Shown: piece after piece, positions 2,112 through 41,100 of the stretch
Position numbering within the stretch: position 1 is the first letter of the stretch
Layout: each line of letters begins with the position of its first letter
Source: an uncultured Erysipelotrichaceae bacterium
Lineage (GTDB): Bacteria > Bacillota_I > Bacilli_A > RFN20 > CAG-826
Length of the DNA: 64,000 bases
Assembly: GCA_902777015.1 (NCBI GenBank)
Contig: CACYSA010000001.1
Span: 50,525-114,524, forward strand
Direction: 5' to 3'
Translations under genes and position numbers: made by a program
Notes under the pieces: model-generated
The model's database searches: none
Told to the model about the DNA's origin: nothing
Seen by the model: the letters and a program-made list of their open reading frames with translations, nothing else

Positions 2112-3366
2112 TTTTCTTTTGTTTTCTTAATACAGCGAAATATGAGGAACTACCATATTTCTTATATGGGAAATATAGCTTATCTTTCACTAAGACAAAG
2201 TTCTCATTTTCCGCGAGGAATTCATTGATGACATTGATACTTTCTTTCTTTGAAAGAGTATCAACGAAGTAGATGAGATAGCCATCTTCTTCAACTTGTT
2301 CACTTGCTTCTTTAAGGGCAAGTTTTTGATTAGCGATTAATACATCTAGCTTTGCTAAATCAAAGCGGAGGAAATAATCTGGTAATAATTGTAATAAATT
2401 AAATCTTGAACTATCTGGCATAACGATAAATGTATGCACAGGTTTAGAAATACATGTGAGGATGGAAGAAGCTTGCGCTTCATAAACACTCACATTTTTA
2501 AGACCGTATTTGTACAAATAATTCTTTGTGCTTTTAGCGGTACCGATATTAGAAGCAATATAATCGATATTGCCCATGTTTTGATTTCTTGAAACAAAAT
2601 CAAGAAGAAGATCGTTAGGATATTCAGCATAAATAGCAATACCTCTTAATGGATCAAGGTCACCTTCATCAAGCATTTCTTTGAACGCTAATGGGAGAAG
2701 TGTCGCTAAACCTTTTTCATTAACAGGATGGGCTTTGTATTTACCTTCACCTTTAAATAAGGCAGTACCAGGAATGCCTTCAATAGCATCAAAGTCATTA
2801 GCGAATTGAAGGAAGAAATCTTCATCGCTAATTTTTTTGTTATTAATTCTGACCACTACTGGAGCTGGTTTGCTATTAGCTTTTAATGTTTTATTAGCGG
2901 AGATATGACCAAATTGCTTGGCCCACATTTTAATAATGTCACTTGGAGTGTTATAGCGGAAAGATAAGAATTCAAACGAACCAACTTCAATGTTTTCAGG
3001 AACGAGCTTCTTATCATTGAGATAAGGATTAATGAAGTCTTCAACTTTCATATCCCCTTCTTTTAAATAAGAATTAGCGTCTTTATTGCATTCTTCTTGG
3101 TTGAATTTTTTAATGAACAAAGCGTTAGATAACGCAATCAAAAGTGAAATAACACCATTTTTATCTAAGTCTCCATATTGTTTATTGATGACATAAGACA
3201 TCACTAGATAGTGACGTAAGACGCATCCCACAACTGCAGAGATGTTGGCTTTCTCTTCTTTAGGCATTTCATGTTTTCTAAATGCTTGTTTTAAAGCGAG
3301 AGAAAACGGTGTGTTTTCGTTGATGATTTTGTTTAAAATGTCTTTCGCTAAAATGTGTGGAGTCAT
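2104..3366 (-). CDS. rsmB: RsmB/Sun-like protein with NusB-like N-terminus and degenerate methyltransferase motifs (probable pseudoenzyme)
   Basis: 420 aa in the conserved rsmB slot. Colinear with RsmB, but AAPGGKT is replaced by AEYPNDL, DAPCSG by VMPDSSRF, and YSTCS by FVDTLS. See the finding at 2104-3366. Confidence 0.7.
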   Translation of the reverse strand: MTPHILAKDILNKIINENTPFSLALKQAFRKHEMPKEEKANISAVVGCVLRHYLVMSYVINKQYGDLDKNGVISLLIALSNALFIKKFNQEECNKDANSYLKEGDMKVEDFINPYLNDKKLVPENIEVGSFEFLSFRYNTPSDIIKMWAKQFGHISANKTLKANSKPAPVVVRINNKKISDEDFFLQFANDFDAIEGIPGTALFKGEGKYKAHPVNEKGLATLLPLAFKEMLDEGDLDPLRGIAIYAEYPNDLLLDFVSRNQNMGNIDYIASNIGTAKSTKNYLYKYGLKNVSVYEAQASSILTCISKPVHTFIVMPDSSRFNLLQLLPDYFLRFDLAKLDVLIANQKLALKEASEQVEEDGYLIYFVDTLSKKESINVINEFLAENENFVLVKDKLYFPYKKYGSSSYFAVLRKQKKND

Positions 3367-3388
3367 AATGACTTCTCTCCTGACTTAA

Positions 3389-3841
3389 TTAGTCTTTGTT
3401 GAAACTTTGGAAGATATCGCCAGTGAAGATTTCGTCTTCGCCTTCTCCTTCTTCCATGTCCTCATAATCCTCATTAGTAACATCAACTAAATTATCCGCG
3501 GCAATAAAGCGTGGATAGGATTCATTGAATTTACTGTAGCGATCATCTTGCGAATAATAGTAAAATTCAAGAATTTTATTAATCGCGACATCGCCGATAC
3601 TTTCTAAAATTAATTTCGCTACTTGGTCTTGTAAGACAGCGACTTTCTTAGGAGCGTGAACATGGATAATAATATTCCATGATGTTTGTTCCACGCCGTT
3701 ATGGAACACCATGTTTTCTGGTGCCACAAAAAGAATATCGTCTTCACTCATTTCGTATAACTTTGCTAAATTTGGAGTCATTTCACGAGATAAGCGTCCA
3801 ACGACGAATTGATCTAAACCATAAATGGTAATCGTAATCAT
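3389..3841 (-). CDS. Small acidic-tailed hypothetical protein, possibly DUF1904/tautomerase-like
   Basis: ORF trimmed to ATG 3841 (MITITIYGLDQ...), which has GAGGT 9 nt upstream. The ORF-track start at 3883 lies inside the priA-terminus repeat. The family call rests only on remembered sequence character. Confidence 0.5.
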   Translation of the reverse strand: MITITIYGLDQFVVGRLSREMTPNLAKLYEMSEDDILFVAPENMVFHNGVEQTSWNIIIHVHAPKKVAVLQDQVAKLILESIGDVAINKILEFYYYSQDDRYSKFNESYPRFIAADNLVDVTNEDYEDMEEGEGEDEIFTGDIFQSFNKD

Positions 3842-3862
3842 AAAAAATATACCTCGGGTATA

Positions 3863-3916
3863 AGTATAATACAGGAAATACATTTTTTATACTAAAAATT
3901 GTATGGATCAATATTA
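3863..3916 (-). repeat. Direct repeat copy C of the priA 3' terminus plus downstream spacer (putative distal island boundary)
   Basis: 3878-3916 (39 nt) is identical to 10289-10327, which holds the last 8 priA codons, the stop and 14 nt of spacer. A weaker match extends to 3863. Confidence 0.85.
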
Positions 3917-3933
3917 GTTATAGTTACCGATAG

Positions 3934-4446
3934 TTATTGAGTTGCTGAAGAATAATTATCTAATCTATCTTTAGTGCTTTTATTGCGACAATAATCATGA
4001 TAAATATCCAGCAAACTAAAAGCGTAATAATTAGCTTCTCTTTCAATGCTTCTACTGGTTCGATTTTTATCATCAAAAAAATACCATTGATAATAATATG
4101 TTAATAATTTTGTTAAGTTTAATAAAATATTGTCCATGTTTTCGATCGCTGACTTAGCTGCCACAAAAATACAAGGATAAACAATTAGATTCTCAGTTTT
4201 CTGTCCATTCACAAACTTTCCATAAATTCTTTTTCCACTTTCGTTAAGGAAAAATGAACAATTACGGATATAAATCTTACACCGAATAGGGAAAAAGTAC
4301 TTTTTTCTTAAAAAAGCAATATATTTTTTAATCAAGTTTCTTTCTTCAAAAGGATATTTTTTATCAAATAGCAATCTCAAGCCATGTTTTTTTGAATCCA
4401 AATAATACTTTTTACAATCAAAATCAATCCAAGAGTTATAGCTCAT
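3934..4446 (-). CDS. Candidate immunity protein for the RHS1 C-terminal toxin
   Basis: 170-aa ORF starting MSYNSW at ATG 4446. It overlaps the RHS1 stop (4436-4438) by 11 nt, with GGAGA upstream. The position immediately downstream of a polymorphic toxin is the only functional evidence. Confidence 0.55.
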   Translation of the reverse strand: MSYNSWIDFDCKKYYLDSKKHGLRLLFDKKYPFEERNLIKKYIAFLRKKYFFPIRCKIYIRNCSFFLNESGKRIYGKFVNGQKTENLIVYPCIFVAAKSAIENMDNILLNLTKLLTYYYQWYFFDDKNRTSRSIEREANYYAFSLLDIYHDYCRNKSTKDRLDNYSSATQ

Positions 4447-7400
4447 ATTCGTCTCCATCTCCAAATAAATAATCAAATTCATTTTCTATAAGCCATCCCA
4501 GAAAAAGTATATATTTCAAGTGGTCCCGACCAGGTGTATGGTGCTTAAGGGGTTTCCTTCCTCTTCTAAATTTGCATTTTGTATCAAACCTTTGTCTCGA
4601 TTTATTTTTTAATTCTCTTCCTTGCTTTTTTTGACCTGGCCTTGCATTTGGATCTTGTGGGTTAAATTCTTCGACTGTACAACCACTGGTTAGAACAGTT
4701 ATTTTCGTAAATTTATCTGTTGATTTGATTGTATCTTCACCGCTGAAATCTATCGTGTTAAAACTATCATTGATTGCATTTCCGATTTCGCTAATTGTTG
4801 AAGAAAGAGAATCTGAAAAGCTTTTTAAAGCTGGATATGCGATATAAACCAGTAATACACAACAAAGAAAAATACCAGAACAAGCGATTATAGTGAGTTC
4901 ATGTCCAAGAGGATCAAAATAGTTCATTGGATTATTGGCGCAGTAACAATATAAATTTAGCCCAAAAGAGTCTTTGTACTCTAAATATGCCCAATCATCA
5001 GGAGATATAAATCTACCTGTTTCTGGATCATAATATCTAGAAGTAAGCCAGTATAACTTTAAATCAGTATCGTAATAATAAGAACGATATCTAATTGGAT
5101 TAATATTACCAATGAATGAAGGGTCAGTATTCTCCAAACCATTAGAATCGAAAACTTTATGATAGCCCCACGCGTCGTAAACGTATCTTGCCACTACTTG
5201 GAAGCTACTATTTCTAATAGCAATAACATCTTGTTGAATATCCTTTTCGTAATAATAAACTTGATTATTAAAAACAAAGCCAATAACACCATTATGGGAA
5301 TTTAGATATAGTAAGGTATCAACATTATTTCTTACTTCACTGATGAGTGTTCCATTTATATAGTTATACTTTGTATAGTTTGTAGGACTGATAGATTTTA
5401 ATATCCTTTGTTTAAAACCATCATATTTAAAAGAAACTGTAACACTATTACTTACTTGATAAGTTTCTAGAAGCGTTCCTCTTGTCCAAGTTAAATTGTG
5501 ATTTCTATAAACAGTAGGATTACCATAGTTATCATATCGAATTGATTGATTATTATAAGAAGTCAATCTGTTAGGATGATTTGGATCATCATATGTGTAT
5601 AAATGCCAAGCTAAAATGTTACTAGGAGTTAGAGGCGATGAATAATCATATTCTTGTTTTGAAACAATGTTACCGTTATTATCGTAAGCAATGAAGAATC
5701 TACGATCTAATTGTTTGTTCCACTCTTCTATTAAACGTGAGTATTTATCATAAATATAGTCATTTGATTCTATTATTTGTGAAGATATCGACGTGAGATT
5801 AGAAATATTGCCAAGGCTATCATAGGTATAATGATCAGTCCTATGAAGCGTAGGAACATTGTTAGTGACACTATAATAAGAAACTGTCTTTGGAAGATTA
5901 TTACTTCTATTAGCGTCTGTTGATGAATGACAATAAGTAATTGTCTTTTTAAAGCCAGAATAGTTAATAAGAAGGGATTCTTCTGTTAACCGTGAATAGA
6001 CATCAACTTCATTGTCAACTTTTATAAAACTGCCACTATAAGCGATGGTTGATTTTTTTATAGTCTTCTCTAAGCCGTTGTTTGGATAATAAACGTAAGT
6101 GACATAGTATAAAGAGGCGACTGCCATCTCAACAAGGCGACGATTTTTTTCATATTCGTATGATACTGAAAGACCATTATAATCAACCTCTGTAGATATT
6201 AATTGGTTATAATAATCAAATTCATTCGTAATGTATGGGTTTAGATTTGGATCAAGTTGTGTAATGGCATTATCATTAATCGATATAGGATTATTGAAAT
6301 CATCGTATTCAAATTCTAGATATTCATCAGTGGTAACTCTATTTCTATTGTCAAACTCAGCATAACATTCATATCCATTTGCGTATCTAGTGTAATATCG
6401 ATAATTCTTCACAATGTCTTGATGAATGTTCGGAACGTATTCAATTTCTGCAATTTGATGATTATTATATTTGACTTCGCACACTTCTCCACCTGAAGAA
6501 TTGATGGTAAAAGTATTGTTGCTAGTTGCTAAAGAATAAGAGTCTTCACTTATGTAATTGTTATACTGGTCGAAGTAATTGGTGGCTGATGCTTTAAACT
6601 GAACGCTTTTTTCTCTTTCGCTTGTTATTGAATCAAAAGAACGTGACTCTATTAGACCATTAGGATACGTGATAACGTTGTTTCTTCCGAAACCGTTATA
6701 AGCATATGTCTTTGTGGATACGTTTTCACCGATTAGTTCACCACTACTTATGAGCTTATCCTCGTTTGAATTATCATAGGAGTTTTCGCTTAAAAAATAA
6801 TCATAACTGGAAACACTGCTAATTGTTTCTTCTAATAAGTTTCCACGATTGTCATAAGTATATTCTTCTACATAACTATCACTTCTTGTTACTTTTTGAA
6901 GGATATAATTCTCATCGTAATCATTTATATATGAATAACTATTAGTGCTACTTAGATGTTTAATTACTTCTTCCTCATAAAAGAAAGAGATATTACCACT
7001 TGAGAATGACTGGTTGTTATGCGAGATTCTTGTTACTTCAACAGTTGCATCATCCTTTGCATTTATTTTGTAAAAAGAAACATCAGCGGATGTACCTGGA
7101 CCAGCATATTTGATGCTTTTTGGACTATTTGACCAATTCATATTTAAGTAGTTTCTCATGCTAATGGTCAAAGAAGTAACGTTGTCCACTAGTTTTGTAA
7201 AATTATCAAACCAAAAATGATTAGAGCCACTACTATTGGTCCAGAACAATCTCTCGTTAGCGAGATAATCATCCATGGAGCAATGGTAATACTGCATATA
7301 GACACTTCCGTTTAAAAACACACCTTTGCCATTTGATAAAAAGTAATACGGTGTATCTCCATAAAAGAATACCGGACCATCAGTTCTAACGTTTGAGCAA

Positions 7401-8794
7401 AAAGCTTCGAACTCCCCAATTAGTGGCACTAGTTTAACTTCTTCAATAAAAACTGAATTTTGAAAATTCTTTGTGATGGTTAAATAAAACTTTCTTTGGG
7501 TGGAATGTCTAACACCAACTGGTGAGGCAAGAAGAGAGGTTCCATTTTTAAAATCTAGCATCGCTAAAGAATTACCATCATAGTCTTTTAATTCAACTGT
7601 GAGCGTGTCATTGTTTGCAAATTGGCCATAAATTCTAGCGTAGAACAAATATATTTTTTCTGATTGGATATTGCTGTTTCCGTTAACAATACTCTGATGA
7701 AACCATTCATTATTTGGCATGTCGTAGGTATATGATGACTGTTGGCCACCACTATTTAATTTAAAATGTATGATTTGATTATCATCGATGTCTTTTATTA
7801 AGCAATTAGCAAATTCTGAACTAAGTGTGAAATAACTGAGATTCCCTGAGCCTTGCGACTTTTGCGAAACTAATTGTTCTTGATTAAAATCATATAAAGT
7901 ATTAATTCCATGTGCATCTTTAACAGTCACCTTATTCTCGCCATAGTGATAATCAAAAGCATATCTAACATGATTTAAAGAAGAACTGAGAACTGAGACT
8001 TTATCGCTATAGTAATTAACAGTAAATGTATCGCCATTATCTAGTTCGAGTTCATATAAAAATGGGCTGCAGGTAAAGTTTTCTTCAATGATGTTATTAT
8101 CACCGATGTTTTTGGTGACTTTTGTCAAATAATAGTCGCTATTAAAAAGAACAGTAGATACTAGATTGTTATTGAAGTAAATCTCCACATGATTATAGTA
8201 ATAGGCAAAATAGACAGTTCTACCATAGTTATCACTGATATGGTCTATTTTTAACGAACCATTAGCACCGTCAATTAAATAAGATATGGAAACTTCCGCT
8301 GATAAAGACGATGTTATGTGTTGATGGATTAAGATAAGACGACCATATATGTCAAATTGTTGATAATTGCCATAATCATCAAATACTTTATAGCCACCAC
8401 TTTGGAGAGTTTCTAGCATTAAGCCAGAACCTTTTATATCGTAATATAGTGATGAGGAATTTATAGCTTTTTCAAACACATGTAAGAACCCATCTGAATC
8501 CTCATAATTATACTTATCAATGCTGGAATCATACTCGAGAAACACATGGTAATTTGTCTTGCATCCTTTAGGAAAACCAGTTGCATAATGTAGATATCCA
8601 ATAGAAACAGTATGCGTTTCGATATACTTTAATGATAAATTTAGTGGTAAATATCTTCCTGGCAAGGAGAATAGTTTTCGAGTAAAGTAAAGTTTTCCGT
8701 GTTCTAAATCGACCTTAAAAGAATAGTCTTTATAGTCGTGTTTTAAAAACTGCTTATATTTATCAAAATAGTAGCCAGCGAAATAGAAAGACAT
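4436..8794 (-). CDS. YD-repeat / RHS-family polymorphic toxin, 1452 aa
   Basis: Many YD repeats (YTYDNRGNLLEE, YTYDSLGNISN, IAYDNNGNIVSK, RYDNYGNPTVY). RHS core end is GNINPIRYRSYYYDTDLKLYWLTSRYYDPETGRFISPD...NPMNYFDPLGH, followed by a 154-aa variable C-terminus. GAGG lies 8 nt before the ATG at 8794. Confidence 0.9.
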   Translation of the reverse strand: MSFYFAGYYFDKYKQFLKHDYKDYSFKVDLEHGKLYFTRKLFSLPGRYLPLNLSLKYIETHTVSIGYLHYATGFPKGCKTNYHVFLEYDSSIDKYNYEDSDGFLHVFEKAINSSSLYYDIKGSGLMLETLQSGGYKVFDDYGNYQQFDIYGRLILIHQHITSSLSAEVSISYLIDGANGSLKIDHISDNYGRTVYFAYYYNHVEIYFNNNLVSTVLFNSDYYLTKVTKNIGDNNIIEENFTCSPFLYELELDNGDTFTVNYYSDKVSVLSSSLNHVRYAFDYHYGENKVTVKDAHGINTLYDFNQEQLVSQKSQGSGNLSYFTLSSEFANCLIKDIDDNQIIHFKLNSGGQQSSYTYDMPNNEWFHQSIVNGNSNIQSEKIYLFYARIYGQFANNDTLTVELKDYDGNSLAMLDFKNGTSLLASPVGVRHSTQRKFYLTITKNFQNSVFIEEVKLVPLIGEFEAFCSNVRTDGPVFFYGDTPYYFLSNGKGVFLNGSVYMQYYHCSMDDYLANERLFWTNSSGSNHFWFDNFTKLVDNVTSLTISMRNYLNMNWSNSPKSIKYAGPGTSADVSFYKINAKDDATVEVTRISHNNQSFSSGNISFFYEEEVIKHLSSTNSYSYINDYDENYILQKVTRSDSYVEEYTYDNRGNLLEETISSVSSYDYFLSENSYDNSNEDKLISSGELIGENVSTKTYAYNGFGRNNVITYPNGLIESRSFDSITSEREKSVQFKASATNYFDQYNNYISEDSYSLATSNNTFTINSSGGEVCEVKYNNHQIAEIEYVPNIHQDIVKNYRYYTRYANGYECYAEFDNRNRVTTDEYLEFEYDDFNNPISINDNAITQLDPNLNPYITNEFDYYNQLISTEVDYNGLSVSYEYEKNRRLVEMAVASLYYVTYVYYPNNGLEKTIKKSTIAYSGSFIKVDNEVDVYSRLTEESLLINYSGFKKTITYCHSSTDANRSNNLPKTVSYYSVTNNVPTLHRTDHYTYDSLGNISNLTSISSQIIESNDYIYDKYSRLIEEWNKQLDRRFFIAYDNNGNIVSKQEYDYSSPLTPSNILAWHLYTYDDPNHPNRLTSYNNQSIRYDNYGNPTVYRNHNLTWTRGTLLETYQVSNSVTVSFKYDGFKQRILKSISPTNYTKYNYINGTLISEVRNNVDTLLYLNSHNGVIGFVFNNQVYYYEKDIQQDVIAIRNSSFQVVARYVYDAWGYHKVFDSNGLENTDPSFIGNINPIRYRSYYYDTDLKLYWLTSRYYDPETGRFISPDDWAYLEYKDSFGLNLYCYCANNPMNYFDPLGHELTIIACSGIFLCCVLLVYIAYPALKSFSDSLSSTISEIGNAINDSFNTIDFSGEDTIKSTDKFTKITVLTSGCTVEEFNPQDPNARPGQKKQGRELKNKSRQRFDTKCKFRRGRKPLKHHTPGRDHLKYILFLGWLIENEFDYLFGDGDEYEL

Positions 8795-8803
8795 CTAAAA
8801 AAC

Positions 8804-9295
8804 CTCATAATCATTATAATTCACGGGATACATTTTTAATATTAAAAATTGTATGGATCGATATTAATCAATAATTCGTACTGACTGTTATAGGCGAATA
8901 GCTGTTGCATCTTTTCTAATATTTGATGGGCTTTATTTGGGTCACGATATTTCACGAGAATGTTTCTTAGATGGTAACCCATATCATAAGGTACATATGG
9001 AGTGGATGGGCCTAGTATTTGTCCTTCGTCCCCAAATTCATCATTAAGGAAGTCAACAACTTGATATGTATTTTCAATTTTGTTCGAGTTGTTTAAGTGA
9101 TGGAGGTTTTAAATAGAAAGAAATGACTCTATCATCTTTAACCTTCTTTAATGCTTGTCCAGCATCGTTGATTTCGATTTCTAATAAGACGTTTTTACCT
9201 TGATTACGAAGATCTTCAACAATGCTCTTTGGTGTACCGTATATGTTACCAACGAACTCTGCCTTTTTAAGAAGTTATTGCTTTATTATTCTTTT
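8804..9295 (-). pseudogene. Chimeric relic: internal gmk fragment fused to priA 3' fragment plus priA downstream spacer
   Basis: By hand alignment, 8804-9079 matches 10265-10540 (priA end plus 38-nt spacer) with about 16 mismatches in 276 nt. 9080-9263 matches 12682-12865 (inside gmk) with about 10 mismatches, and looser similarity runs to about 9295. The junction lies at an AATT microhomology. There is no start codon. Confidence 0.85.
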
Positions 9296-10233
9296 GCTTC
9301 TTCTATGGTTATTACTGGAAAGAATTTAAAGTAATTGAAATAAACATTAGAAAACATTTGGTATCCCGTTATTTCTTGTTTTATCATACTATAACCTATT
9401 ATTAAATAATCATATTTCCAATCCGCATTTGGATTGCCACGATATACAATGTATGAGATATTATCTTCAAAAGAATAATGCCAAAACGGTTTAAAATCAT
9501 ATTCCATCATAATCGAATAAATATCTTTTTTTATTAATTCAGCATCGAATAAAGAAACATTATAAGTATTGTCACGATTACGCAGTAATACTTTTTCTTC
9601 TATAAGGCATCTTCCGTCAATTAACTTACATTTCTCCTTGTAATACAATTCATCATCGAAGATTTTAATATCTTCGCTATCGCTAGGTATTTTTTCTAAT
9701 GTGTTATCAAACAAATCAAGTTCATAAAACCCAGAATTTGTTTTGTAATACATTTTTGAATCATAACCACTATTATATGATTCTATTTCTTCATCAAAAT
9801 AAAAAACAAATTCAAAATTATCAAAATTAGTATCTGTTTTTCCAATGCAATATTCTTTTTCTTGTTTATTGAAAAGAAAATAATAATGATTTTCTAAATA
9901 TACTAAAAATTTTACTATGTCATAGTCGCTGTTTTCTATTTTTAAACGCTGTTTAAAGTCATAATAGCTAATATAGTTTTCATATGAAAAATCTATATGA
10001 TGTGCATACTCTTTATCTAAAACACAAAAATTATCTCTACACAAAGGAACTAATCTTTGTTGGATTTGATTCTTTCTTTCCTTCCAAGAAGAATTAATTA
10101 AAGAGTCAATCGCTAGGCAAATTGCAACACCGATCGCCACAAGAGTAAAAGGGTTAAAAATTATCCAAATTGTAATCCATAAAGAGCGTGTTTTTTGCCA
10201 AAAAGTTTTTTCTTTTTTTGAATCAATTGCCAT
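9286..10233 (-). CDS. Hypothetical single-pass membrane protein (cassette gene X), Tyr/Asn/Phe-rich ectodomain
   Basis: 315 aa with an N-terminal TM helix (LWITIWIIFNPFTLVAIGVAICLAI). It lies between two copies of the priA-terminus repeat. Its last codons and stop lie in gmk-derived sequence. Confidence 0.7.
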   Translation of the reverse strand: MAIDSKKEKTFWQKTRSLWITIWIIFNPFTLVAIGVAICLAIDSLINSSWKERKNQIQQRLVPLCRDNFCVLDKEYAHHIDFSYENYISYYDFKQRLKIENSDYDIVKFLVYLENHYYFLFNKQEKEYCIGKTDTNFDNFEFVFYFDEEIESYNSGYDSKMYYKTNSGFYELDLFDNTLEKIPSDSEDIKIFDDELYYKEKCKLIDGRCLIEEKVLLRNRDNTYNVSLFDAELIKKDIYSIMMEYDFKPFWHYSFEDNISYIVYRGNPNADWKYDYLIIGYSMIKQEITGYQMFSNVYFNYFKFFPVITIEEAKE

Positions 10234-10302
10234 GATTATTCTTCTCTATCAAAATGTCTAATGACTCATAATCATTATAATTCACGGGATACATTTTTTA
10301 TA

Positions 10303-12498
10303 CTAAAAATTGTATGGATCAATATTAATCAAGAGTTCGTATTGACTGTTATAGGCGAATAGCTGTTGCATTTTTTCCAATATTTGATGGGCTTTATTTG
10401 GGTCGCGATATTTAACAAGGATGTTTCTTAGATGGTAACCCATATCATAAGGAACGTATGGAGTGGATGGTCCTAGTATTTGTCCTTCATCCCCAAATTC
10501 ATCATTAAGGAAGTCAACAACTTGATATGTATTTTCAATTAGATTCTCTTCGTTTTTAGCGCGTAAAGTCACACTCGCTAAATAGGCATATGGAGGATAA
10601 AATTGTAGTTTGCGCATTTCCATCTCTTTACGATAGAAAAGTTCATAATCTTGTCTAGCTGCGAACGTAATTGCGTAATGACTTGGAAGATATGTTTGAA
10701 TAATCGCGGTACCTGGTTTATCTTTTCTTCCAGATCTTCCAATGGCTTGAGTAATTAGTTGGAACGCTCTTTCGTTACTACGATAAGATGGCATTGATAA
10801 ACCAATGTCCGCTAAAACGATACCAACTAGGGTTACATCTGGGAAATCATGGCCTTTCGCTATCATTTGTGTACCAATTAAGACATTAGCTTCTTTCTTT
10901 CTAAATGCTTCAATTGTTTCAGGTATTTTGTTTCTATTTTTAGCACTATCACTATCTAGTCTTAATGTTTTAGCGCTCGGGAAAAGACGCTTAACTTCTT
11001 CTTCTATTTTTTCTGTTCCAAAGCCTGTTTTCATGAGATAGGAAGAGCCACAATCTGGACATGTTTCTTGCATTGGTTCAACATAATCACAGTGATGGCA
11101 TTTAAGCATGTTATCTCTTTTATGGTAGGTTAGTGCTATCCCACAAGTTGGACACTTAAAAACATGACCACAGTTACGACAAGTAACATGAGTGGAAAAT
11201 CCTCTTCTATTGATTAATAAGATAGCTTGTTCTTCTCTTGCTAATGTAATGTGAAGAACATCTCTTAAAGCATGAGAAAAGATATAACTATCCCTATCAA
11301 TGTTCTTATAATCAAGCATGTTCACAATCTTAGTGGTTGGTAGCTTTTGATTATTGATACGCTTATTTAAATAAAGCATATGATAGACGCCTTTTTGTCC
11401 TCTTGCTCTACTTTCTAAAGATGGAGTAGCGCTTGCTAAAAGGACTTTGGCGTTATTATATTTAGCGCGCATTATCGCTACTTCTCTAGCGTGATAGAAT
11501 GGTAAATTATCTTGTTTATATGATTCAGTATGTTCTTCATCTAGGATGATTAAGCCAATATTTTTAAGAGGAGCGAATATCGCACTTCGTACACCCACGA
11601 CTACTTTGCAGTCCCCATGATTAATCTTACGGTATTCATCATATTTTTCCGCAGGGGTTAATTCACTATGAAGAATAGCGACGTTATTTTGGAAACGATG
11701 GAGGAAATATTCCACCATCATGGGAGTTAATGATATTTCAGGAACAAGCATTAAAACTGATTTACCTTGTTTAAGAACTTGTTCGCTTAAAGATAGATAA
11801 ACTTCTGTTTTGCCGGACCCAGTAACACCCTCTAACAAGTAGACTAAATCATTAGAATTATTGAACTCATCAATAACCTTATTTTGATCATCGCTAAGTT
11901 TAGGAGGAGCACTATATTTATAATCAGGTATCTTTAACCTGCGTTTTTCTTCTTTAACAATCTTGATTCTTTGTTTTTCTAAAAGCTTTTCAATGATACT
12001 AGGAGATTTAACATCTCTTTTTAAAATACGACCATCGTTTTTAATTAATCTTAATAATTCGATTTGTTTATTTGTTAAATCAGATTCATCATCATTAATA
12101 ACTTCTAGATATTGATCATACGCAATTTTAGGAGCTTTTAATGATGTCTTTTTTGGTGATAAAGAAGGAGGTAACATTGATTGAAGAACACTAATCTTAG
12201 GCACTAGATAATATGAAGATACTTCATCTAATAAAGATAATAATTCTTCGTTTAATAATGGTTCATCATCAATGACATCTTTTATTTCAGAAATAGAGAA
12301 ACCCTTTTCTTCTTCATATTGTTCTATTGATTTATTAGTTTCTTCTACCTTTACTACGTAACCAATAATGTCTCGATGATTAAAATCAAGTAAGACACGG
12401 ATACCTTTCTTTAGAATTTTGCCACCATTATAAAAATAAGAAAAAGGACGGTTTAATGAGCTTTTAGCATATTCAATGAGAACTTCCACTACTTGCAT
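10303..12498 (-). CDS. priA: Primosomal replication restart helicase PriA
   Basis: 731 aa with Walker A GVTGSGKTEVY, DEEH box, and the Cys-rich zinc region CRNCGHVFKCPTCG...CHHCDY...CPDCGS. Confidence 0.95.
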   Translation of the reverse strand: MQVVEVLIEYAKSSLNRPFSYFYNGGKILKKGIRVLLDFNHRDIIGYVVKVEETNKSIEQYEEEKGFSISEIKDVIDDEPLLNEELLSLLDEVSSYYLVPKISVLQSMLPPSLSPKKTSLKAPKIAYDQYLEVINDDESDLTNKQIELLRLIKNDGRILKRDVKSPSIIEKLLEKQRIKIVKEEKRRLKIPDYKYSAPPKLSDDQNKVIDEFNNSNDLVYLLEGVTGSGKTEVYLSLSEQVLKQGKSVLMLVPEISLTPMMVEYFLHRFQNNVAILHSELTPAEKYDEYRKINHGDCKVVVGVRSAIFAPLKNIGLIILDEEHTESYKQDNLPFYHAREVAIMRAKYNNAKVLLASATPSLESRARGQKGVYHMLYLNKRINNQKLPTTKIVNMLDYKNIDRDSYIFSHALRDVLHITLAREEQAILLINRRGFSTHVTCRNCGHVFKCPTCGIALTYHKRDNMLKCHHCDYVEPMQETCPDCGSSYLMKTGFGTEKIEEEVKRLFPSAKTLRLDSDSAKNRNKIPETIEAFRKKEANVLIGTQMIAKGHDFPDVTLVGIVLADIGLSMPSYRSNERAFQLITQAIGRSGRKDKPGTAIIQTYLPSHYAITFAARQDYELFYRKEMEMRKLQFYPPYAYLASVTLRAKNEENLIENTYQVVDFLNDEFGDEGQILGPSTPYVPYDMGYHLRNILVKYRDPNKAHQILEKMQQLFAYNSQYELLINIDPYNF

Positions 12499-12510: not shown

Positions 12511-13083
12511 TTAGTCTTTATCAAATTCCTTTAAGATTTTTATGATTTCTTCACCAGCGCGTTTAATACGATCGTTCATAATAACGAAATCGTAATTCTT
12601 TGCTTTTTCCATTTCAGCTTCCGCTTTAGCTAAACGCTTTTGGATGACTTCTTCAGTTTCTGATTTTCTTTTTCTAATTCTTTGTTCGAGTTGTTTGAGT
12701 GATGGCGGTTTTAAATAGAAAGAAATGACTCTATCATCTTTAACCTTCTTTAATACTTGTTCAGCACCGTTGATTTCGATTTCTAATAAGACGTTTTTGC
12801 CTTGATTACGGAGATCTTCAACAATGCTCTTTGGTGTACCATATCGGTTACCAACGAACTCTGCCCATTCTAAGAAATTATCGTTATCAATATTCTTTTG
12901 GAATTCTTCTTGAGAAACGAAGTAATATTCAACCCCATGTGTTTCTGTAGCGCGTGGCGCTCTTGTGGTCATGGAAATTGAAAAGACCATTGGGAAAGCA
13001 TCACGGTTCATAATATATTTTCTAACCGTGCCTTTACCGACACCAGATGGTCCACTAAGAATAATCAATAACCCTTTTTTCAT
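12511..13083 (-). CDS. gmk: Guanylate kinase
   Basis: 190 aa with P-loop GPSGVGKGT and YYFVS...FLEWAEFVGNRYGT. It lies 12 nt upstream of priA. Confidence 0.93.
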   Translation of the reverse strand: MKKGLLIILSGPSGVGKGTVRKYIMNRDAFPMVFSISMTTRAPRATETHGVEYYFVSQEEFQKNIDNDNFLEWAEFVGNRYGTPKSIVEDLRNQGKNVLLEIEINGAEQVLKKVKDDRVISFYLKPPSLKQLEQRIRKRKSETEEVIQKRLAKAEAEMEKAKNYDFVIMNDRIKRAGEEIIKILKEFDKD

Positions 13084-14623: not shown

Positions 14624-14902
14624 TTAAAAATCGTTGTACAAGTATTTTATAACACCACAAATTAAAGCAATGAGATTAAAGTCATCTTCCAAACAGTTAT
14701 AATCATCACTATTAATAATATCTCTATCTATTGTACAAACGTTGCCTTTGTATACATAAAAATCCAATTGTCGATTATTTTTATCTTTTATAGTCAACGC
14801 CATGGTTGAAAGAGACTTTTTGTTGTATTGAAAATCTAAAACCGAACAACCATAAAAGTACAAAAACCATTCAATCAATTCTCTCATCTTTTTCTTTCTC
14901 AT
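14624..14902 (-). CDS. Candidate immunity protein for the RHS2 C-terminal toxin
   Basis: 92 aa from ATG 14902 (MRKKKMRELIEW...). The start overlaps the RHS2 stop as TAATG. Positional evidence only. Confidence 0.55.
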   Translation of the reverse strand: MRKKKMRELIEWFLYFYGCSVLDFQYNKKSLSTMALTIKDKNNRQLDFYVYKGNVCTIDRDIINSDDYNCLEDDFNLIALICGVIKYLYNDF

Positions 14903-17900
14903 TAAAACATTCTCCAATCTATTCCATGTTCAATCAAAAAATCAATTTCATCCCATAAAGCTGAAGTGGGCTTAGCTGCTCTTATACCAGTAACGGCAAA
15001 TTCACTTCCAAGCGTGATTGCATCGTTGAGAAAAGTCGCATTCAACTTCCATTGTTCGCACAAATCTAATGAGAAATAGACTTCTTTTGGTATGTCAAAA
15101 GCGCTCGCTCCAATATATTTTGCCACATTTAAATATGCCGGAAAGCTTCCAAGAACTGTAATCGCTTTTATAGGAAGAACATAATATTTTGTTATGGAAA
15201 AGCCAAGTATTCCGGTAATTTCGGTAATCATTGATCCAGCAACATATCCAATTATACCTCCAACAACAGCACCGCCAAGCGCTCCTAGTGCGGTTAGACC
15301 GAATAATTCCCAGCCTTCTTTCCCTTCGTTTTTCATTTTATTGTAAGTAATTACCCCGCCAATGGTGGCACCAATTAGCGCACCAGCGATTAAACCAAGC
15401 ATAGCAAGAGATATTGCCAAATGCCCATCTTCATCCATCAACATCACCGGATTATTATTACAATAAGCATATAGATGGAAACCTGAGATATTGTCTTGAT
15501 TTAAATATTGGAATTCATCTGGAGAAATGAACTGCATGATAGATGGATCATAATATCTGGCTAATAGATAATATAGGCCTGTTTCAACGTCATAATAATA
15601 GCCTTTATATCTAATCGGATTGATATTACCAACTGATGACATATTAGTGTCTTCATCACCTGTAGCAGTTAAAACTTTGTGATTACCCCAAGCGTCATAA
15701 ATATACCTAGTAACAAAGCTTCCCATTTTGTCAACGATACCAATTATTTGATTAAATGGATTTTTAACATAACGATAAGAAGTGCTAGATGAACCATTAT
15801 AGTAATTAAAGCCCACTATGCCGGTTTCATCATAGAAATACCTGATTTCTTTATTATCACTTCTCTTTTCGCCAATTAGTCTATTGTCATGATAATAGTA
15901 AGTAATCGTTAAGGAGTTATTGATCTTCTTTTGATATCTTCTATTTTGATAATCATAAGTAAACTGCACTGTTTGGTTTCCTTTAACGAACTGACTTAAT
16001 AATGTACCCCTAGTCCATTGATAAGTTTCATTTCCTTTTGTCAAACGATTACCGTATGCATCATATGTAAAAGTGATGTTACCAAAAGAAATCAATCTAC
16101 CCTTGATATCATAAGTTAACGAATTATTGCCAACTGTTGATAATCTTCCATATGTATCATAAGTATACGAACGATTATATTCAGAAAAAGAAACATTGTA
16201 TTCTTGTGTTATACGATTAAATCCATCGTAACTATACGCAAAGCGAGGGAATGATTCTCCATTAGTGTAAATACTAGAAAGATTGCCAAAAATATCATAG
16301 CTATAGGATTCTAAATAAACAGGATAAATTATCGTATTATTCGTTTCGTCTTCATTAATACCAAATGTAAAATTATATGGCAAAGAAGAACCATTAATAT
16401 ATGTTATGTCACTAATAAGACAGTTGGTGTTAACAGCAGCAAATACACTATAATGCTTTTTGACTCTACCGAAGTTATCTTTTTGAATATTGAACGTGTG
16501 AATAGTTACATTATGAAAATTATGATTCTCTAGCCTTATTTCAGTTTCATCAACACTGCGTATAAAAGACATATCATATAAGCCGAAATCATATATTGTT
16601 CCGTTAATGTAATAGCCTTCATCAATGATAAATTCATCGTTATTAAAATTAGTTGTAATCAAAGAATTATCGATTTGATCATAAGTGAACGATGTCACCA
16701 AACCACTAGCATCATTATGTTTATCAGTTATAGAAGTTAGATTTGAAGCAAAATAAGATTCACCACTATTTGTATATGAATAATCAACCTTGGTTTCACT
16801 ATTAAGACGAATATGGGTTAACTTTTTATAGTTGTTCCGTTGATAGACAAGCTGCAGGGAAGAAGGATAGTTGATAATAGTACTATTGCCGTTTTCCAAG
16901 ATAGAATACAAAGAAGAATAAGTATCATCACTTTCTAAAACTTTGTAAGTGATACCTTTTTCCATAGTGCTTTGAACAGCTTGATAATTTGTTGCACCAT
17001 TAGAAAAACTCTGAGTATTGTTAACATAGTTAATTCTATTAGTGTTTGTGCATTCAATATTATCATTTAAGCAAAAATTGATCTTAACTGGACCATCACC
17101 ATTAATGGTATATATGTATTTTTTTGAATAATAACTGTTTAAAATAGTTGATCCGCTAACAGTGTTTCTAACGATTGATGACGGACCGTATCTACCATAA
17201 GTTATATCAACACTATTTTTATCACTTGTTTTTCTAGAGATAAAACCTTTGTTGTTTTCGCTCGCCTCATAAAGAACGATAGTCTCTATTCCATCAGTGG
17301 ATATAACTTTCTTAAGTTCTCCATTAGTGAAGTATTCATATGTAGTTGTATTTGTGGACACAACATGAGCCACTAAAGGATTGCCACTCCATTTATATTC
17401 AGTGCTTGTCTTTTCAATTAGTTTTTCATAGTAATCGTAGGTTTTTATTTCTTCACTTATCTTACGAAATACACCATCAACGTATGTGCCATATCTAGTT
17501 GTTATTACTAGAGTATCATCGATAAAAGAATAATAAACTCTAGATGCAGTATCGTTCTCGGAAGATAATATTGTTCTATCTGGAGAAACGGTTTCAAAAT
17601 ACCAAACAAAGTCTTGTTCAGAATCAATATCGAAATTAGAGCAATTAAAAGAATTAAAAATAATATCGTTACCGTTAAATAGACAGAAGCGGAAATTATA
17701 AGAGTCCACTACTCGACCATCGTTAAAATATAACGGGTGAGCGTGAGGGGAATAGTTTCCATATAGTAAATCAAAACAATTATGTTGGTGTGAAATTGTA
17801 TTAAGAAGATCGTTTGGTGACATTCTTATTTCACCAGTAACATCAATAATCCTACTTGGTGTTTGATCGTAATAAGAAGGATAAAGACCAACAGAAGTCA

Positions 17901-19407
17901 CTTCATCAAATGAGTGAGTTCCATTAGCGTCTTTAAAAAATAAAGTTGTTTTTGCTTTTTTATCAAAATAGATGTCACCAATATCAACACTGACACTGTT
18001 GCAGTTTTCATTAATAAATGACAAATAAATTGTTAAAGAGGAGATATTATTAATATTTCTAGTTATTGGGACTTCCACTAACTGATATTTATCGAATTGA
18101 AGAACATTAATATCGACCGGCGAAGAAGATATGGTGTTTGATCCAGCAATGACTGCTCTTACTCTTTTAGATGTGTAGTCGTTTAATCTTAAATAAAACC
18201 TTAATACAAAATATCTATAATTGTTTAATAAAGAAATGGCATTATAAGAAAAATACAAAGAAATTGGTGAAGTTGCTCTAATAAATCTATGGTTGTTAAC
18301 ATAGATATGTTGGGTATTGCCTGTAATAGGAATATAAACACCAGTTTCTTTATATAATGTTGTAAAATCATCGGAAGATAAACCATTAAAAACCGCGGTG
18401 ATCTGAGCATTTTTATCCATTGAATAGGAATAAAATACACCGTTTTTAATGACACTCACCTCATTAGTGGTCACCCAATCATCCGTTCTTAAGCTATAAC
18501 CGATGCGCTGAATTGTTTCTATAGCGGTAAAAAGACCGTCACTTGGATGATAATATCCTTTAGATAGAGCTGTCACCAAAAAGTCATTGTATAAGTTTAT
18601 ATAATCGTAATGGATTTCATAAACATCATGAGTTTGATGATTGTCTAAATAGTCAATCCTGTCGAAAGATGAATCTGGTATTGAAAGATCGCTGTTATAA
18701 TGAAACGAATATAATTCTCTTTCATCACTAATACCAGCATCTATAGACATGCTTGTTAAAAAGTTAGATGTGTATTCCAAATGAAGCCTATTTGCAATAG
18801 CAATATTGTGATATAAGGTGATATATGAAAGTTTTGAATCGGTATAAGCAAAATTGATATGCGTATGAGTATCTCTTTCATCACAAACTCTTGTTAAAAA
18901 GCCGTTTGCATCATATACGATTGTTTTGATGTTAGTGTCGTCAAAGCCGTTAACAATTTGAACAAGTCGTCCATAATCGTCAAAATACAGCTTATCGTTT
19001 TTAGAATTAACGATTTCCGCCATAAAAGAGCTATCTTCATCAAAATATAAGTAGAGATTGCTTTCATTACAAAAATACAAGGAAGTTTTTACATAATAAA
19101 ATGTGTGTATATAACCAAAATCATCAATGTATTTATAAATTGGATGTTCGTTATCATCCTCACCATCTTCTATTAAGAATTGATGATAATTTGTTTTAAA
19201 TCTATCCGGAAGTCCTAAACAACGATTCGATATGCTTTGAGGCATTCTTGAATGATATACAAGATTAAAACTTAATTCATATGAGTCCCTACTAACAGAA
19301 ATGGCATCACTAATAAATCTCATTGATTGGTCAAACAAATTAAAGAAAGGATTGTCACCAATCTCTGTACTTGAAATATTCTGTCTAGGGAGAAGTTCAG
19401 TGGGCAT
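14902..19407 (-). CDS. YD-repeat / RHS-family polymorphic toxin, 1501 aa (paralogue of 4436-8794)
   Basis: YD repeats ([34 protein letters not shown]). RHS core end is [38 protein letters not shown]...[12 protein letters not shown], followed by a 172-aa variable C-terminus. Confidence 0.9.
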   Translation of the reverse strand: [1501 protein letters not shown]

Positions 19408-38162: not shown

Positions 38163-41100
38163 TTAAATAAGAATTGTTGCTCCTGATAAGAAGGTATGGA
38201 TATATTCACCATATTCTTTAAATGAGAAAGTATTGCTGTAGATATTACTATCTACACTTGGATCAGTAACTGTTTCATCAACAGGAACAAACATTTCACC
38301 AGCATTGAGCACTAATGGGTTTCTCAATAGCTTGATATATTGATGGGCTTCAGTGAGATATAAAGCTTGAGCAAGATGTGAATTATTGCCTGCATCTTTA
38401 CCCATCATAGTAAAGCAGTTTTTAATTGATTCACTATTAGCCTTCATTGAAGCTGGGGTACTAGTTGTACCGATATAAGATAAGGAATCAATAATACCTT
38501 CTAAACCATCTCTTTCAACGACATCAAGTTCGTTATAGTCGCTTAAAGTTAATGTATTAGCATCATCATTACCAAAGCTAAATAATTGATAACGATAAGC
38601 AGCATATGCTGGAGTGGTATCAAGTTTAGTATATTGGTTTTCTAAGATGTAATTGAATAAACCAGAAACGAATTCAGAAGCAATTGCTGAACGTTTATAT
38701 TGTGTTGGATCGGTTTCATTAGTGGCGTTATAAGCGCATTCAACGATTTGTAAGATTAAGGCTTTCTTAGATTTAATTGTTTCGATATTGTTATCAGAGA
38801 ATGTTGTTGCGGTAATTTCATCTGTGGTTAAATCAATTAATTGCTTTAAGCCTTTGGCTTCAACGATATAAGTAATATCATTTTCATCTTCAAAATAATT
38901 ATGCATATGCACTAATTTGGAGAGAGTGGCAATCTTATCCGCTTCACTCTTAGCTGCTGTAGAAACATCAGCGTCTCTAGCGATATAAGAAGATAAATCA
39001 GCGCCTAAAGAATTATTAAGCATAATGCCTTGAGCGGTAATCTTTTGACCAGTTGTTAAAGTGTTATATTCATCATAATTACCCGCTAAAGAGGTATTTA
39101 AGATATGTGATTTATAGACATAACGTAATAAACCAGTTAAGCGTGTTTCGCCTTCACTACCTTGGACAAATTCATTTAAGTTATCCATATTGGTGACATA
39201 TTTTGGTGTGCCTTCTTTATGGATGGAATTCATCACTTGATAAATATTATCAATTTCTGTACCTTCATCCGCATTAGCGTTACTACCACCATAAACGACT
39301 TGGCCTAAACGATAATAGGCATAATTAACTGTGTCATAAGTAGTAAGTGTACCTAAATTAATGGAATCAAAACCATCTTTGATGAATTTTGGTAAAGCAT
39401 CACAAACGATATCAGAACTATTAACCGCTTTAAGCATGTTCTTAATATCGATTGGATCTAATTGATCAAGGGCAAAAGTTGAGATATCTAAAGATGAACC
39501 ACTACCTAAATCAGCGGCGGTATTAGCTAATTTCATAATGGCGTCAACTTCTTGTGACCACGCTAAACCTTGCGCTTTGTGATAGACATTTGTGGAAATA
39601 CCTGTATCGTCAGCTTGTGTCATTTCTTTAATGCGGTCATATAATTTTGCACTAGCGCTAGCTTGAGAATCATATGATGAATCATAAGCAAATGTATCTA
39701 AGCTAACGAAGGAGCAAATCTTAGCAATCATTTCTTCAAATAATGTATAACCATTATCAAATTTATCTGTGTAATAACTGATACCTGGATAATCGCCTCT
39801 TCTAGCAGGAGAATGGAACAAATTAGAATTATGCATATCCATGAGGATATCTTTAAGCGCTCCACCTTCACCTGTGATGGCTTTTAAGGCTAATGGATTA
39901 GACATTTCTTTACCGTCTAATTGTGTATCGAGTTCTTGATAATCTTCTAATAATTTAACGATGCTATTAATGTCTTTAGCTAAATATTTAGCGGTGTAAT
40001 TAGCTTCACTTCTAGCCACCGTATCGTTATAGAAATAATGATAATATGGATCAACACAACTGAAGTTGACTTTTTGGCCATTACTTTCAATATTGAATTG
40101 ATCGTTTTCAATAAAGATTTTATAAATGGTATTTGGTAAGCAGTCGCTTAATAAATTACTGTTATTTAAATCATTAAATAATGTTTCGATTGTTTCGATG
40201 TTGTCACTTCTCTTCATATCAACGTTGTTGATATTAGTGACAGTATTGCCATCTTTATCTTTTAACGAATAGAAAGCATCAACACTATTTAATAAATTAT
40301 CGATTTCAGTGTGATGTTTATTAATTTGAGTAGCGTAGTCTAAAGATAAATCACTAATTTCTTTATCAGTTAAGAATGTTGATTTAACAAGATAATCAAC
40401 CTTGGTATCTTTAGAAGAATAATTAGTGGCATTAGCATCTTTTGGTGAATTAGCGCCTAAATAGATACTATCTTTGATGCTGCTTTCTTTTAGCATCGAA
40501 TTGAATAAGCCTTGGAATGTAGTCACACTACCGACTTTAGCGGAACCTAAACGATGGAAGATATATGAATCGCCTAAATCTTTAAGCGCTTTTTTCATAT
40601 CATTTAAGAAACCATCTTTATTAAGTTTAGAATAATCAAAATTATTACTAGAATCGATAATGCCTTTATCTTTGGCTTTATTGATGACTTCATAGAAGTC
40701 CACTAGTTTATCAATTTCAGCTTTTCTAGCGACTCTTGCATTAGCGAAATCCATGATGTCGTAGTTAGCATCAATCATATAAGCGTTATAAGCACTTGAT
40801 AAATTGAAAGCACTATAACCATTTAATAAATTTTCACCAGCGATACGATAGAAGCTATATAAGCAGATACGTAAACATGATGTCTCATTAATTGAAGTTA
40901 ATAATCCTTCCACTAAGGAATTTGGTAATTGATTGAATGGTACTTGATTACCAGCATTTGGACCTTTAGTGGCTTTTTCTAAAACACGCATTGAATAGGT
41001 CATGAAACGGCAGACACGAGAAATTTCATCACTATCAAAGACATCAGTGTAATCACTAACGAATTTATCACTACCGAAATAATCACCCCAAACATTAGCT

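Follow-up and report, generated by a model that had tools for sequence, protein, structure and literature searches.

A polybasic Rhs cargo and its putative zincin-derived partner beside priA in an uncultured Erysipelotrichaceae bacterium

In this work, we describe a putative toxin-immunity cassette found in a stretch of 64,000 nucleotides (nt) from an uncultured Erysipelotrichaceae bacterium (contig CACYSA010000001.1 of assembly GCA_902777015.1, positions 50,525 to 114,524), to which we refer as the window. The cassette is made up of a gene for a large Rhs protein, whose last 154 amino acids (aa) form a candidate toxin, and of a second open reading frame (ORF) of 170 aa that overlaps the end of the first (table 1). 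In nearly all discussions, Rhs and other polymorphic toxins figure as vehicles of folded enzymes, each of which is held in check by a tight-binding immunity protein. In the present case the Rhs vehicle is ordinary; the payload and the immunity lineage are unusual and undescribed, and both families are currently annotated merely as hypothetical proteins.

The Rhs protein and its cargo

YD dipeptides run throughout the translation of the Rhs gene, two stretches of which match RHS_repeat in Pfam (PF05593, E value 5e-8), and the Rhs-associated core of NCBIfam (TIGR03696) is matched over its full length (profile positions 1-76 of 76, E value 2.5e-17). RYYDPETGRF and FDPLGH are both located in this core, whose end reads ...RYYDPETGRFISPDD...YCANNPMNYFDPLGH. 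An earlier description of this DNA, made from its letters and referred to here as the sequence-only reading, had proposed a canonical YD/RHS shell closed by the DPxG(L/H) motif, and the RHS_repeat matches, the complete TIGR03696 domain and the YCANNPMNYFDPLGH ending bear this out. Because the core motif is complete, cleavage after DPLG can be inferred, and the DPLG/H junction is presumed to be an autoproteolytic boundary.

The cargo that follows DPLG (4439-4900, reverse strand) shows the four parts already recognized in that description, namely a Cys-rich hydrophobic helix (LTIIACSGIFLCCVLLVYIAYPAL), a Ser/Thr-rich linker, a Lys/Arg-dense stretch (PGQKKQGRELKNKSRQRFDTKCKFRRGRKPLKHHTPGRDH) and an acidic tail (DYLFGDGDEYEL). 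The 170-aa ORF runs from an ATG at 4446, with GGAGA as ribosome-binding site in front of it, to 3934. Its first 11 nt overlap the end of the Rhs gene, whose stop codon lies at 4436-4438, an overlap that the same description had also reported. The same module occupies the same place in a metagenome contig of a conspecific strain (L087, from SRR15023582), so that the module is not a product of chance.

Table 1. Features of the cassette and of its borders, in positions of the window
Feature	Positions	Strand	Basis or remark
Rhs/YD-repeat protein, 1452 aa	4436..8794	-	ORF translation; RHS_repeat and TIGR03696 matches
Rhs-associated core, aa 1206-1298	4901..5179	-	RYYDPETGRF...NPMNYFDPLGH at its end
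Cys-rich hydrophobic segment, predicted transmembrane helix, LTIIACSGIFLCCVLLVYIAYPAL	4826..4897	-	hydropathy and AlphaFold helix; start of the cargo
Acidic, Ser/Thr-rich variable linker, cargo residues 26-82	4655..4825	-	unconserved in alignment A4; low pLDDT
Conserved polybasic motif, DPNARPGQKKQGRELKNKSRQRFDTKCKFRRGRKPLKHHTPGRDHLKY, 48 aa	4511..4654	-	alignment A4 and profile search; family-defining unit
Hydrophobic/aromatic, then acidic tail, ILFLGWLIENEFDYLFGDGDEYEL	4439..4510	-	clade-specific; tail lengths across the family
Candidate immunity protein, 170 aa	3934..4446	-	overlap, ribosome-binding site, synteny, AlphaFold model
Degenerate active-site helix, KLLTYYYQW	4084..4110	-	alignment A2; AHELTHYYQW (HExxHxxQ) in relatives
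Direct repeat, 57 nt (last priA codons and downstream intergenic sequence)	3860..3916		repeat family D3; cassette border on the downstream side
Mosaic of pseudogene fragments upstream of the Rhs gene	8804..9263		repeat families D1 and D2

The family to which the cargo belongs is defined by the basic block, which in the window holds 17 Lys or Arg against four Asp or Glu (net charge of about +13, isoelectric point 11.3). The family consensus reads DPxARPGQKKQGRExKxK…PxKHTPGRxHxK[YFW], and the remainder of the cargo does not align. In our alignment of the family (A4, with C-terminal-region numbering) R87, Q90, K91, K92, Q93, G94, R95, E96, K98, K100, H121, T122 and G124 are invariant. The motif is 47-53 aa long across the family and always lies at the C-terminus of Rhs/YD proteins. 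We found 46 relatives of the C-terminal region among 5.8 billion proteins. With a profile, 241 clusters (at 50% identity) were retrieved from 1.84 billion cluster representatives at an E value of at most 1e-3, 172 of them at 1e-10 or below; the preservation of the block in so many clusters is a further reason not to regard the module as fortuitous. Most carriers come from gut Bacillota. The long ones, which reach 2282 aa, are RHS_repeat proteins, and the TEN_YD-shell domain of Pfam occurs in many relatives. Many of the other carriers are short ORFs whose start lies within the Rhs core and which are found in arrays with other Rhs fragments, as is classic for orphan cassettes of polymorphic toxins. 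The block ends five residues or less from the protein C-terminus in 74 of the 142 members that could be parsed, the others having short and varied tails.

No match to the C-terminal region was found in Pfam, NCBIfam, PADLOC, PHROGs or the PDB sequences, and the profile of the motif family had none in the PDB either. The view that this region belongs to no named toxin family is therefore upheld; its uniqueness is not, as it is one of a sizeable family of uncharacterized proteins. The only possibly matching name is Ntox39, which a one-line table entry of Zhang et al. (2012) lists as a Rhs-associated domain confined to Firmicutes, with "several basic residues" and no immunity protein; its description as all-β sets it apart from the motif family. 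Nor does the motif correspond in any apparent way to the nine short "PT" toxins reported by Nachmias et al., which are folded enzymes by description.

Selection on the motif acts at the protein level, since the codons of the QKK residues vary synonymously across 24 loci and, compared with L087, the basic block and tail together show three synonymous and no non-synonymous changes. All four non-synonymous differences that separate the two cargos fall in the helix or in the linker. The same free variation of the QKK codons rules out conservation of the DNA itself, such as that of a recombination site. In the window these codons form, in the right frame, a perfect dnaX-type -1 slippery heptamer (CA A AAA AAG, 4625-4631, reverse strand). 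Programmed frameshifting was rejected given the codon variation at the 24 loci and a -1 frame that closes after 3-38 codons, and the heptamer is probably a side effect of Lys codons being AT-rich.

Upstream of the motif, the Kyte-Doolittle hydropathy (19-aa window, threshold 1.6) marks residues 1-29 of the cargo, and AlphaFold2 places a helix at residues 2-49 with a predicted local distance difference test score (pLDDT) of 86-96. Of 117 members, 100 have a strongly hydrophobic segment of at least 19 aa no more than 150 aa before the motif, in many cases with a WNPxGW...LG signature. The last 24 aa of the cargo contain seven Asp or Glu and no Lys or Arg, and a second helix is modeled at residues 125-146 (pLDDT up to 84). 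The basic block between them, modeled from the family alignment, reaches a pLDDT of 50-66, and on this model it is probably disordered. A metagenome protein of 526 aa (P0266), itself an Rhs fragment, carries the motif at aa 393-452 followed by a Tox-WTIP domain at aa 485-526 (E value 1e-15); it has no upstream helix, so that here, contrary to most members, the helices come after the motif, and the motif accompanies membrane helices in either order.

The cassette shares its YD shell, DPxG core, variable cargo and small downstream gene with known Rhs/YD toxins, such as the WapA/WapI system of B. subtilis, and with Rhs orphan arrays. The exchangeable cargo of these toxins is also seen here, with the motif on many different Rhs proteins and on fragments that start in the core. 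Unlike cargos of the WapA type, that of the window is predicted to consist of a helix and a short disordered polybasic peptide instead of a folded transfer RNA nuclease or other enzyme.

The downstream ORF and its zincin-like relatives

An ORF of ~160 aa homologous to that of the window, at 26-44% identity, directly follows the toxin gene in every context that we fetched (L001, L002, L003-L006, L087, L092 and others). A profile search placed at least 375 clusters in this partner family, none with a Pfam domain and all hypothetical or unnamed, and the 170-aa protein itself had no match in Pfam, NCBIfam, PADLOC or the PDB sequences. In a survey restricted to one genome per species we collected 80 loci of the partner family, mostly from gut and rumen Clostridia, with additional ones from Ruminococcus callidus ATCC 27760, Bacillus mycoides and the metagenome-assembled genomes (MAGs) of an Anaeroplasmataceae and of a Fusobacteria member. 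A toxin with the basic motif lies directly upstream in about 26 of the 80, and the others are orphans or lie at contig ends. Over 26 distinct pairs, the identity between toxin cores is correlated with that between partners (r 0.66), a value reached by none of 2000 permutations. The same holds within the clade that keeps the HExxH motif described below (r 0.58, 0 of 2000).

Between the window and L087, the downstream gene accumulated nine amino-acid substitutions against eight synonymous changes, so that, as far as these two sequences tell, it evolves faster than the toxin motif. In L087 (647-1147) a TCA-to-TGA change at codon 167 also removed the last four residues. The protein has neither signal peptide nor membrane segment and is itself basic, with an isoelectric point of 9.4 (median of the family, 7.8), which excludes immunity by an acidic "sponge". 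Conserved synteny, codivergence and arrays of orphan toxin and immunity genes are what a cognate immunity gene would be expected to show, and the standard immunity arrangement proposed in the sequence-only reading fits them.

Several partner genes were seen in other surroundings. Two loci (L032 and L036) have a frameshifted or degenerate polybasic toxin adjoining an intact partner gene, indicating that the immunity gene outlasts a decaying toxin, and at L091 the gene called upstream of the partner stops before the motif, which is found intact, together with the tail, in another frame. An orphan of B. mycoides lies behind Rhs fragments and beside a WapI-like immunity gene. Orphans of the HExxH type, annotated as hypothetical proteins, are carried by plasmid p33 of B. 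mycoides (L094; NZ_CP035985.1, 31145-31630) and by plasmid pMLY91_1 of Priestia megaterium (L095), and another, 65.6% identical to the family member P0047, by a phage contig from human feces (MT835851.1, 87-566). These locations hint that mobile elements spread the gene as a defense. The many orphan partner genes, those on the Bacillus and Priestia plasmids and on the gut phage contig among them, suggest that these communities are under real selection by the toxin. The plasmid-borne homologs are, moreover, culturable sources of the family.

The 170-aa protein had been said to contain no recognizable motif, a statement that needs revision. Its AlphaFold2 model (pLDDT 89.5) is a small sheet of β-strands with three long helices, and most relatives carry AHELTHYYQW…ERQA, that is, HExxHxxQ…E, the His residues being located, in the model, on the second of the long helices and the Glu on the third one. 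Among 120 relatives, 108 have HExxH and 107 the downstream Glu (E..A). The protein of the window belongs to the 12 that have lost the former: KLLTY stands in place of HELTH, without either His or the catalytic Glu, in a helix that retains the invariant scaffold residues T116, Y118, Q120 and W121. With its active-site residues lost, the copy of the window cannot be a metallopeptidase.

Structure comparisons lead, if weakly, to the same group of folds without singling out one family. Foldseek searches against viral models (BFVD) returned uncharacterized phage proteins first (best E value 2e-5, template modeling score 0.54-0.70), followed by phage entries labeled SprT-like, IrrE-N-like, "Zn-dependent protease" and "Peptidase". 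Matches in the PDB were weak (E value of 0.026 or above), with anthrax lethal factor, YbeY, ulilysin and serralysin at the top, and those of partner members in Pfam were below threshold (E value 0.008-0.08) and spread over several zincin families. Regarding ImmA/IrrE in particular, none of 44 members matched PF06114 (Peptidase_M78) at an E value of 5 or below, and the lone IrrE-N-like Foldseek match is a phage protein with an E value of 0.05. A small zincin without classification is the description that suits the partner family best.

Toxin tail, partner type and competing explanations

The form of the toxin follows the state of the partner. In all six independent pairs whose partner lacks HExxH (the window with L087 as one, L001, L002, L015, L091 and L092) the toxin continues for 18-24 aa past the motif, while among 19 distinct pairs with an HExxH partner the tails measure 0-10 aa and none reaches 16 aa. 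The extra tail, hydrophobic-aromatic and then acidic, is paired only with the clade that lacks HExxH. Judged from these sequences, the distribution suggests that partners of the main clade act catalytically on the bare peptide, and the clade of the window appears to have switched to stoichiometric binding by way of a newly acquired tail that serves as a handle.

The explanation that we favor, at a rough probability of 0.55, is that of a polymorphic Rhs toxin-immunity cassette in which a membrane-tethered polycationic peptide is neutralized by a catalytically dead binder derived from a zincin. The cargo would then not be a folded enzyme, being composed of a helix, a variable linker, the polycationic motif and a clade-specific tail, and the partner would descend from a small HExxHxxQ…E zincin. 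The motif is the presumed toxic moiety, and its action is probably non-enzymatic.

In such a mechanism the Rhs shell would enclose the 154-aa cargo, cleave itself after DPLG and release the cargo at the target cell. The helix would insert into the cytoplasmic membrane and place the +13 peptide at or across its cytoplasmic face, helped by the inside-negative potential and in agreement with the positive-inside rule. The peptide may there bind a conserved target and stop growth, candidates being a polyanion (the ribosome or other RNA, DNA, acidic lipids) or a specific protein. The invariant Gln, Gly, Glu, Thr and Pro residues argue for a specific recognition site over generic charge, and the solubility of the partner suggests that the critical encounter is cytoplasmic. 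The second half of the motif, rich in Pro, Lys and Arg and ending in HRKY-COOH, bears a loose resemblance to proline-rich antimicrobial peptides that target ribosomes. The 170-aa cytosolic protein would be the immunity factor. Its HExxH relatives may neutralize the peptide by cleaving it; the partner of the window, having lost the catalytic residues, would act by binding and probably grips the extra C-terminal tail of its cognate toxin.

A number of points weigh against this explanation and should be kept in view. The N-terminus of the Rhs protein has no hydrophobic leader; no signal peptide or trafficking domain was found there in Pfam and NCBIfam at an E value of 1 or below, and none of signal peptide, LXG, PAAR and wall-binding domain was detected with Pfam. 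The low pLDDT of the motif may partly stem from a shallow alignment. About two-thirds of the partner genes are not beside such a toxin, which fits orphan immunity genes and also a broader function, and linkage alone could explain the correlation between toxin and partner identities. The association of tail and inactive partner probably reflects one or a few evolutionary events, not six. Moreover, the partner is basic, so simple charge neutralization is unlikely, and the manner in which it would bind is conjecture.

The first alternative is a membrane-depolarizing or pore-forming toxin, in which the helices kill and the basic motif serves for topology, for anchoring or as a voltage-responsive tail. 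We consider it unlikely, although several observations are in its favor: membrane helices are found in 85% of the members, P0266 joins the motif to a predicted pore-former, and the second Rhs cargo of the window, described below, has glycine zippers. Basic C-terminal tails together with membrane helices are also a feature of small holin-like proteins. What argues against a pore is that the helices and the linker vary while the motif is nearly invariant, including non-charged residues for which a topology signal has no need, and that the partner is a soluble, cytosolic protein. Immunity to pore-formers is usually membrane-bound.

Two described cargos are relevant to this alternative. Tox-WTIP (PF15654), a predicted non-catalytic pore-former of polymorphic toxins with two helices, resembles the cargo of the window, as predicted here, in being a small, non-enzymatic, membrane-spanning Rhs cargo; the region of the window differs in having no PF15654 match, no RxxR and no Wx[ST]IP, and its conserved part is hydrophilic. 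The teneurin-like protein of Bacillus inaquosorum has the YD shell and a hydrophobic cargo with a predicted transmembrane segment that permeabilizes the membranes of E. coli (PMC13018210), which again speaks for a pore-former and is at the same time a published precedent for the membrane-linked cargo of the favored explanation. That cargo, compared here by its description only, deforms membranes and has no reported conserved polybasic motif (PMC13018210).

The basic block might otherwise be a compact metal-dependent nuclease or another enzyme acting on nucleic acids, a chance that we regard as slim. The sequence-only reading had guessed at a nucleic-acid-targeting activity from the basic patch and an HH..H cluster, and the high positive charge and the conserved H121, H127, E96 and D83 would suit it, as would the possibly matching Ntox39 entry with its basic residues. 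Two of the three His residues of the cluster are indeed conserved (H121 and H127), but most members have Lys in place of the first His of the HH. The whole unit measures 47-53 aa, with no more than five residues after HRKY in half of the members, the AlphaFold model of the block shows no fold at its low confidence, and neither Pfam nor NCBIfam gave a match to HNH/His-Me, EndoU, colicin, Ntox or Tox-xHH domains at an E value of 1 or below, the PDB profile search being negative as well. A nuclease fold is thus unsupported.

Slimmer still, in our estimate, is the chance that the zincin-family partner is a processing or maturation peptidase, a chaperone of the cargo or an unrelated linked peptidase. 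HExxHxxQ…E is the signature given by Zhang et al. (2012) for the PVC metallopeptidases that release toxins, and the relatives of the 170-aa protein share it together with the helix layout; the site is kept in 90% of them, and many copies lie away from any toxin. Nevertheless, loss of catalysis would be unexpected in a maturation peptidase while the toxin stays under purifying selection, and the partner takes the immunity position in orphan arrays, remains at loci with a decayed toxin or none, and is the sole other gene inside the repeat-bounded cassette. Unlike PVC-metallopeptidase, SprT and ImmA/IrrE, the copy of the window is a standalone protein in the immunity position and not an N-terminal releasing domain.

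Finally, we give hardly any credence to a non-toxic role in which helix and basic tail anchor the YD shell at the surface of the producer as a teneurin-like adhesin, since, even though a helix followed by a positive tail resembles a stop-transfer anchor and no N-terminal secretion signal was found, the segment follows a complete autoproteolytic core, members of the family occur as displaced orphan C-terminal pieces, each with a partner gene of its own, which is the hallmark of polymorphic toxins, and a tail would need neither ~20 invariant positions nor a dedicated, codiverging cytosolic partner.

If the toxin-immunity explanation holds, the cassette would represent a new type of effector, an inhibitory peptide that is delivered, and a new type of immunity, by degradation, with the first proteolytic immunity protein. 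Tri1 is an enzymatic immunity protein. Relatives with HExxH, should they cleave the peptide, would resemble it and Imm-ARG in conferring immunity by enzymatic destruction or reversal, instead of binding or in addition to it; the copy of the window cannot be catalytic. Imm-ARG, of the ADP-ribosylglycohydrolase type, was the sole enzymatic immunity protein known to Zhang et al. (2012). The literature that we searched reported no proteolytic or zincin immunity protein and contained nothing specific on Rhs toxins of Lachnospiraceae or Erysipelotrichaceae. The family is widespread in Clostridia and Bacilli of human and animal guts, with a protease-like partner in nine of ten cases, and the active and inactive partner clades would represent a natural experiment on the switch from catalysis to binding. 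A still broader generalization, which we offer only tentatively, is that gut Bacillota deliver, in Rhs shells, a membrane-tethered, disordered and polycationic peptide of ~48 residues that poisons a conserved target inside the cell, and against which a small, cytosolic, proteolytic zincin is the standard defense, the lineage of the window having replaced it by a dead binder and a handle on the toxin.

Insertion at the 3' end of priA

The neighboring genes (gmk, priA, an rsmB-like gene, rlmN and a PP2C phosphatase gene) form a housekeeping row conserved in Bacillota, in DNA with a guanine-cytosine (GC) content of ~32%. The closest named relative of the RlmN protein, at 82% identity, comes from an Erysipelotrichaceae MAG. 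A scan of 3300-10400 for promoters and terminators gave no enrichment over shuffled sequences, and no further copies of the toxin or of the partner were found within the window.

Repeat family D3 has three copies (3860-3916, 8810-8866 and 10271-10327) that are 84-89% identical, and the first two flank the Rhs gene and the 170-aa ORF. Next to the second copy, the sequence upstream of the Rhs gene combines a duplicate of the 3' end of priA (291 nt; 8804-9094 matching 10265-10555 at 92%) with one of an internal gmk fragment (185 nt; 9079-9263 matching 12681-12865 at 95%), and a 46-aa ORF (8842-8982) duplicates the C-terminus of PriA. As these repeats and fragment copies bound the module, the cassette is an insertion by recombination at the 3' end of priA, in the priA-rsmB housekeeping operon.

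The repeat copies bracket not only the cassette but also, separately, a 315-aa ORF (9286-10233, reverse strand) that sits between priA and its duplicated end, just upstream of the Rhs gene. The 3' region of priA thus has the look of a hot spot for recombination, with at least two insertions so far. The 315-aa product has an N-terminal membrane helix, its gene a very low GC content of 24-27%, and searches of Pfam, PHROGs and PADLOC gave no match. An accessory or export factor is conceivable, as is an insertion without relation to the cassette. Farther away, a 2099-aa ORF (38163-44462, reverse strand) is without a Pfam match at an E value of 0.01 or below.

The window contains a second Rhs protein of 1501 aa (14902-19407, reverse strand), likewise without leader or recognizable trafficking domain. 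A 97-aa ORF (14624-14917, reverse strand) overlaps the end of its gene and is a candidate immunity gene without family match. After MDEDGH, the cargo of this second protein opens with glycine-zipper helices (Gly-zipper_Omp, E value 8e-7) followed by an unassigned domain of ~110 aa. Since both cargos of the window begin with membrane helices, such helices after the cleavage site may, as this likeness suggests, be a general feature of delivery here, the payload being what follows them.

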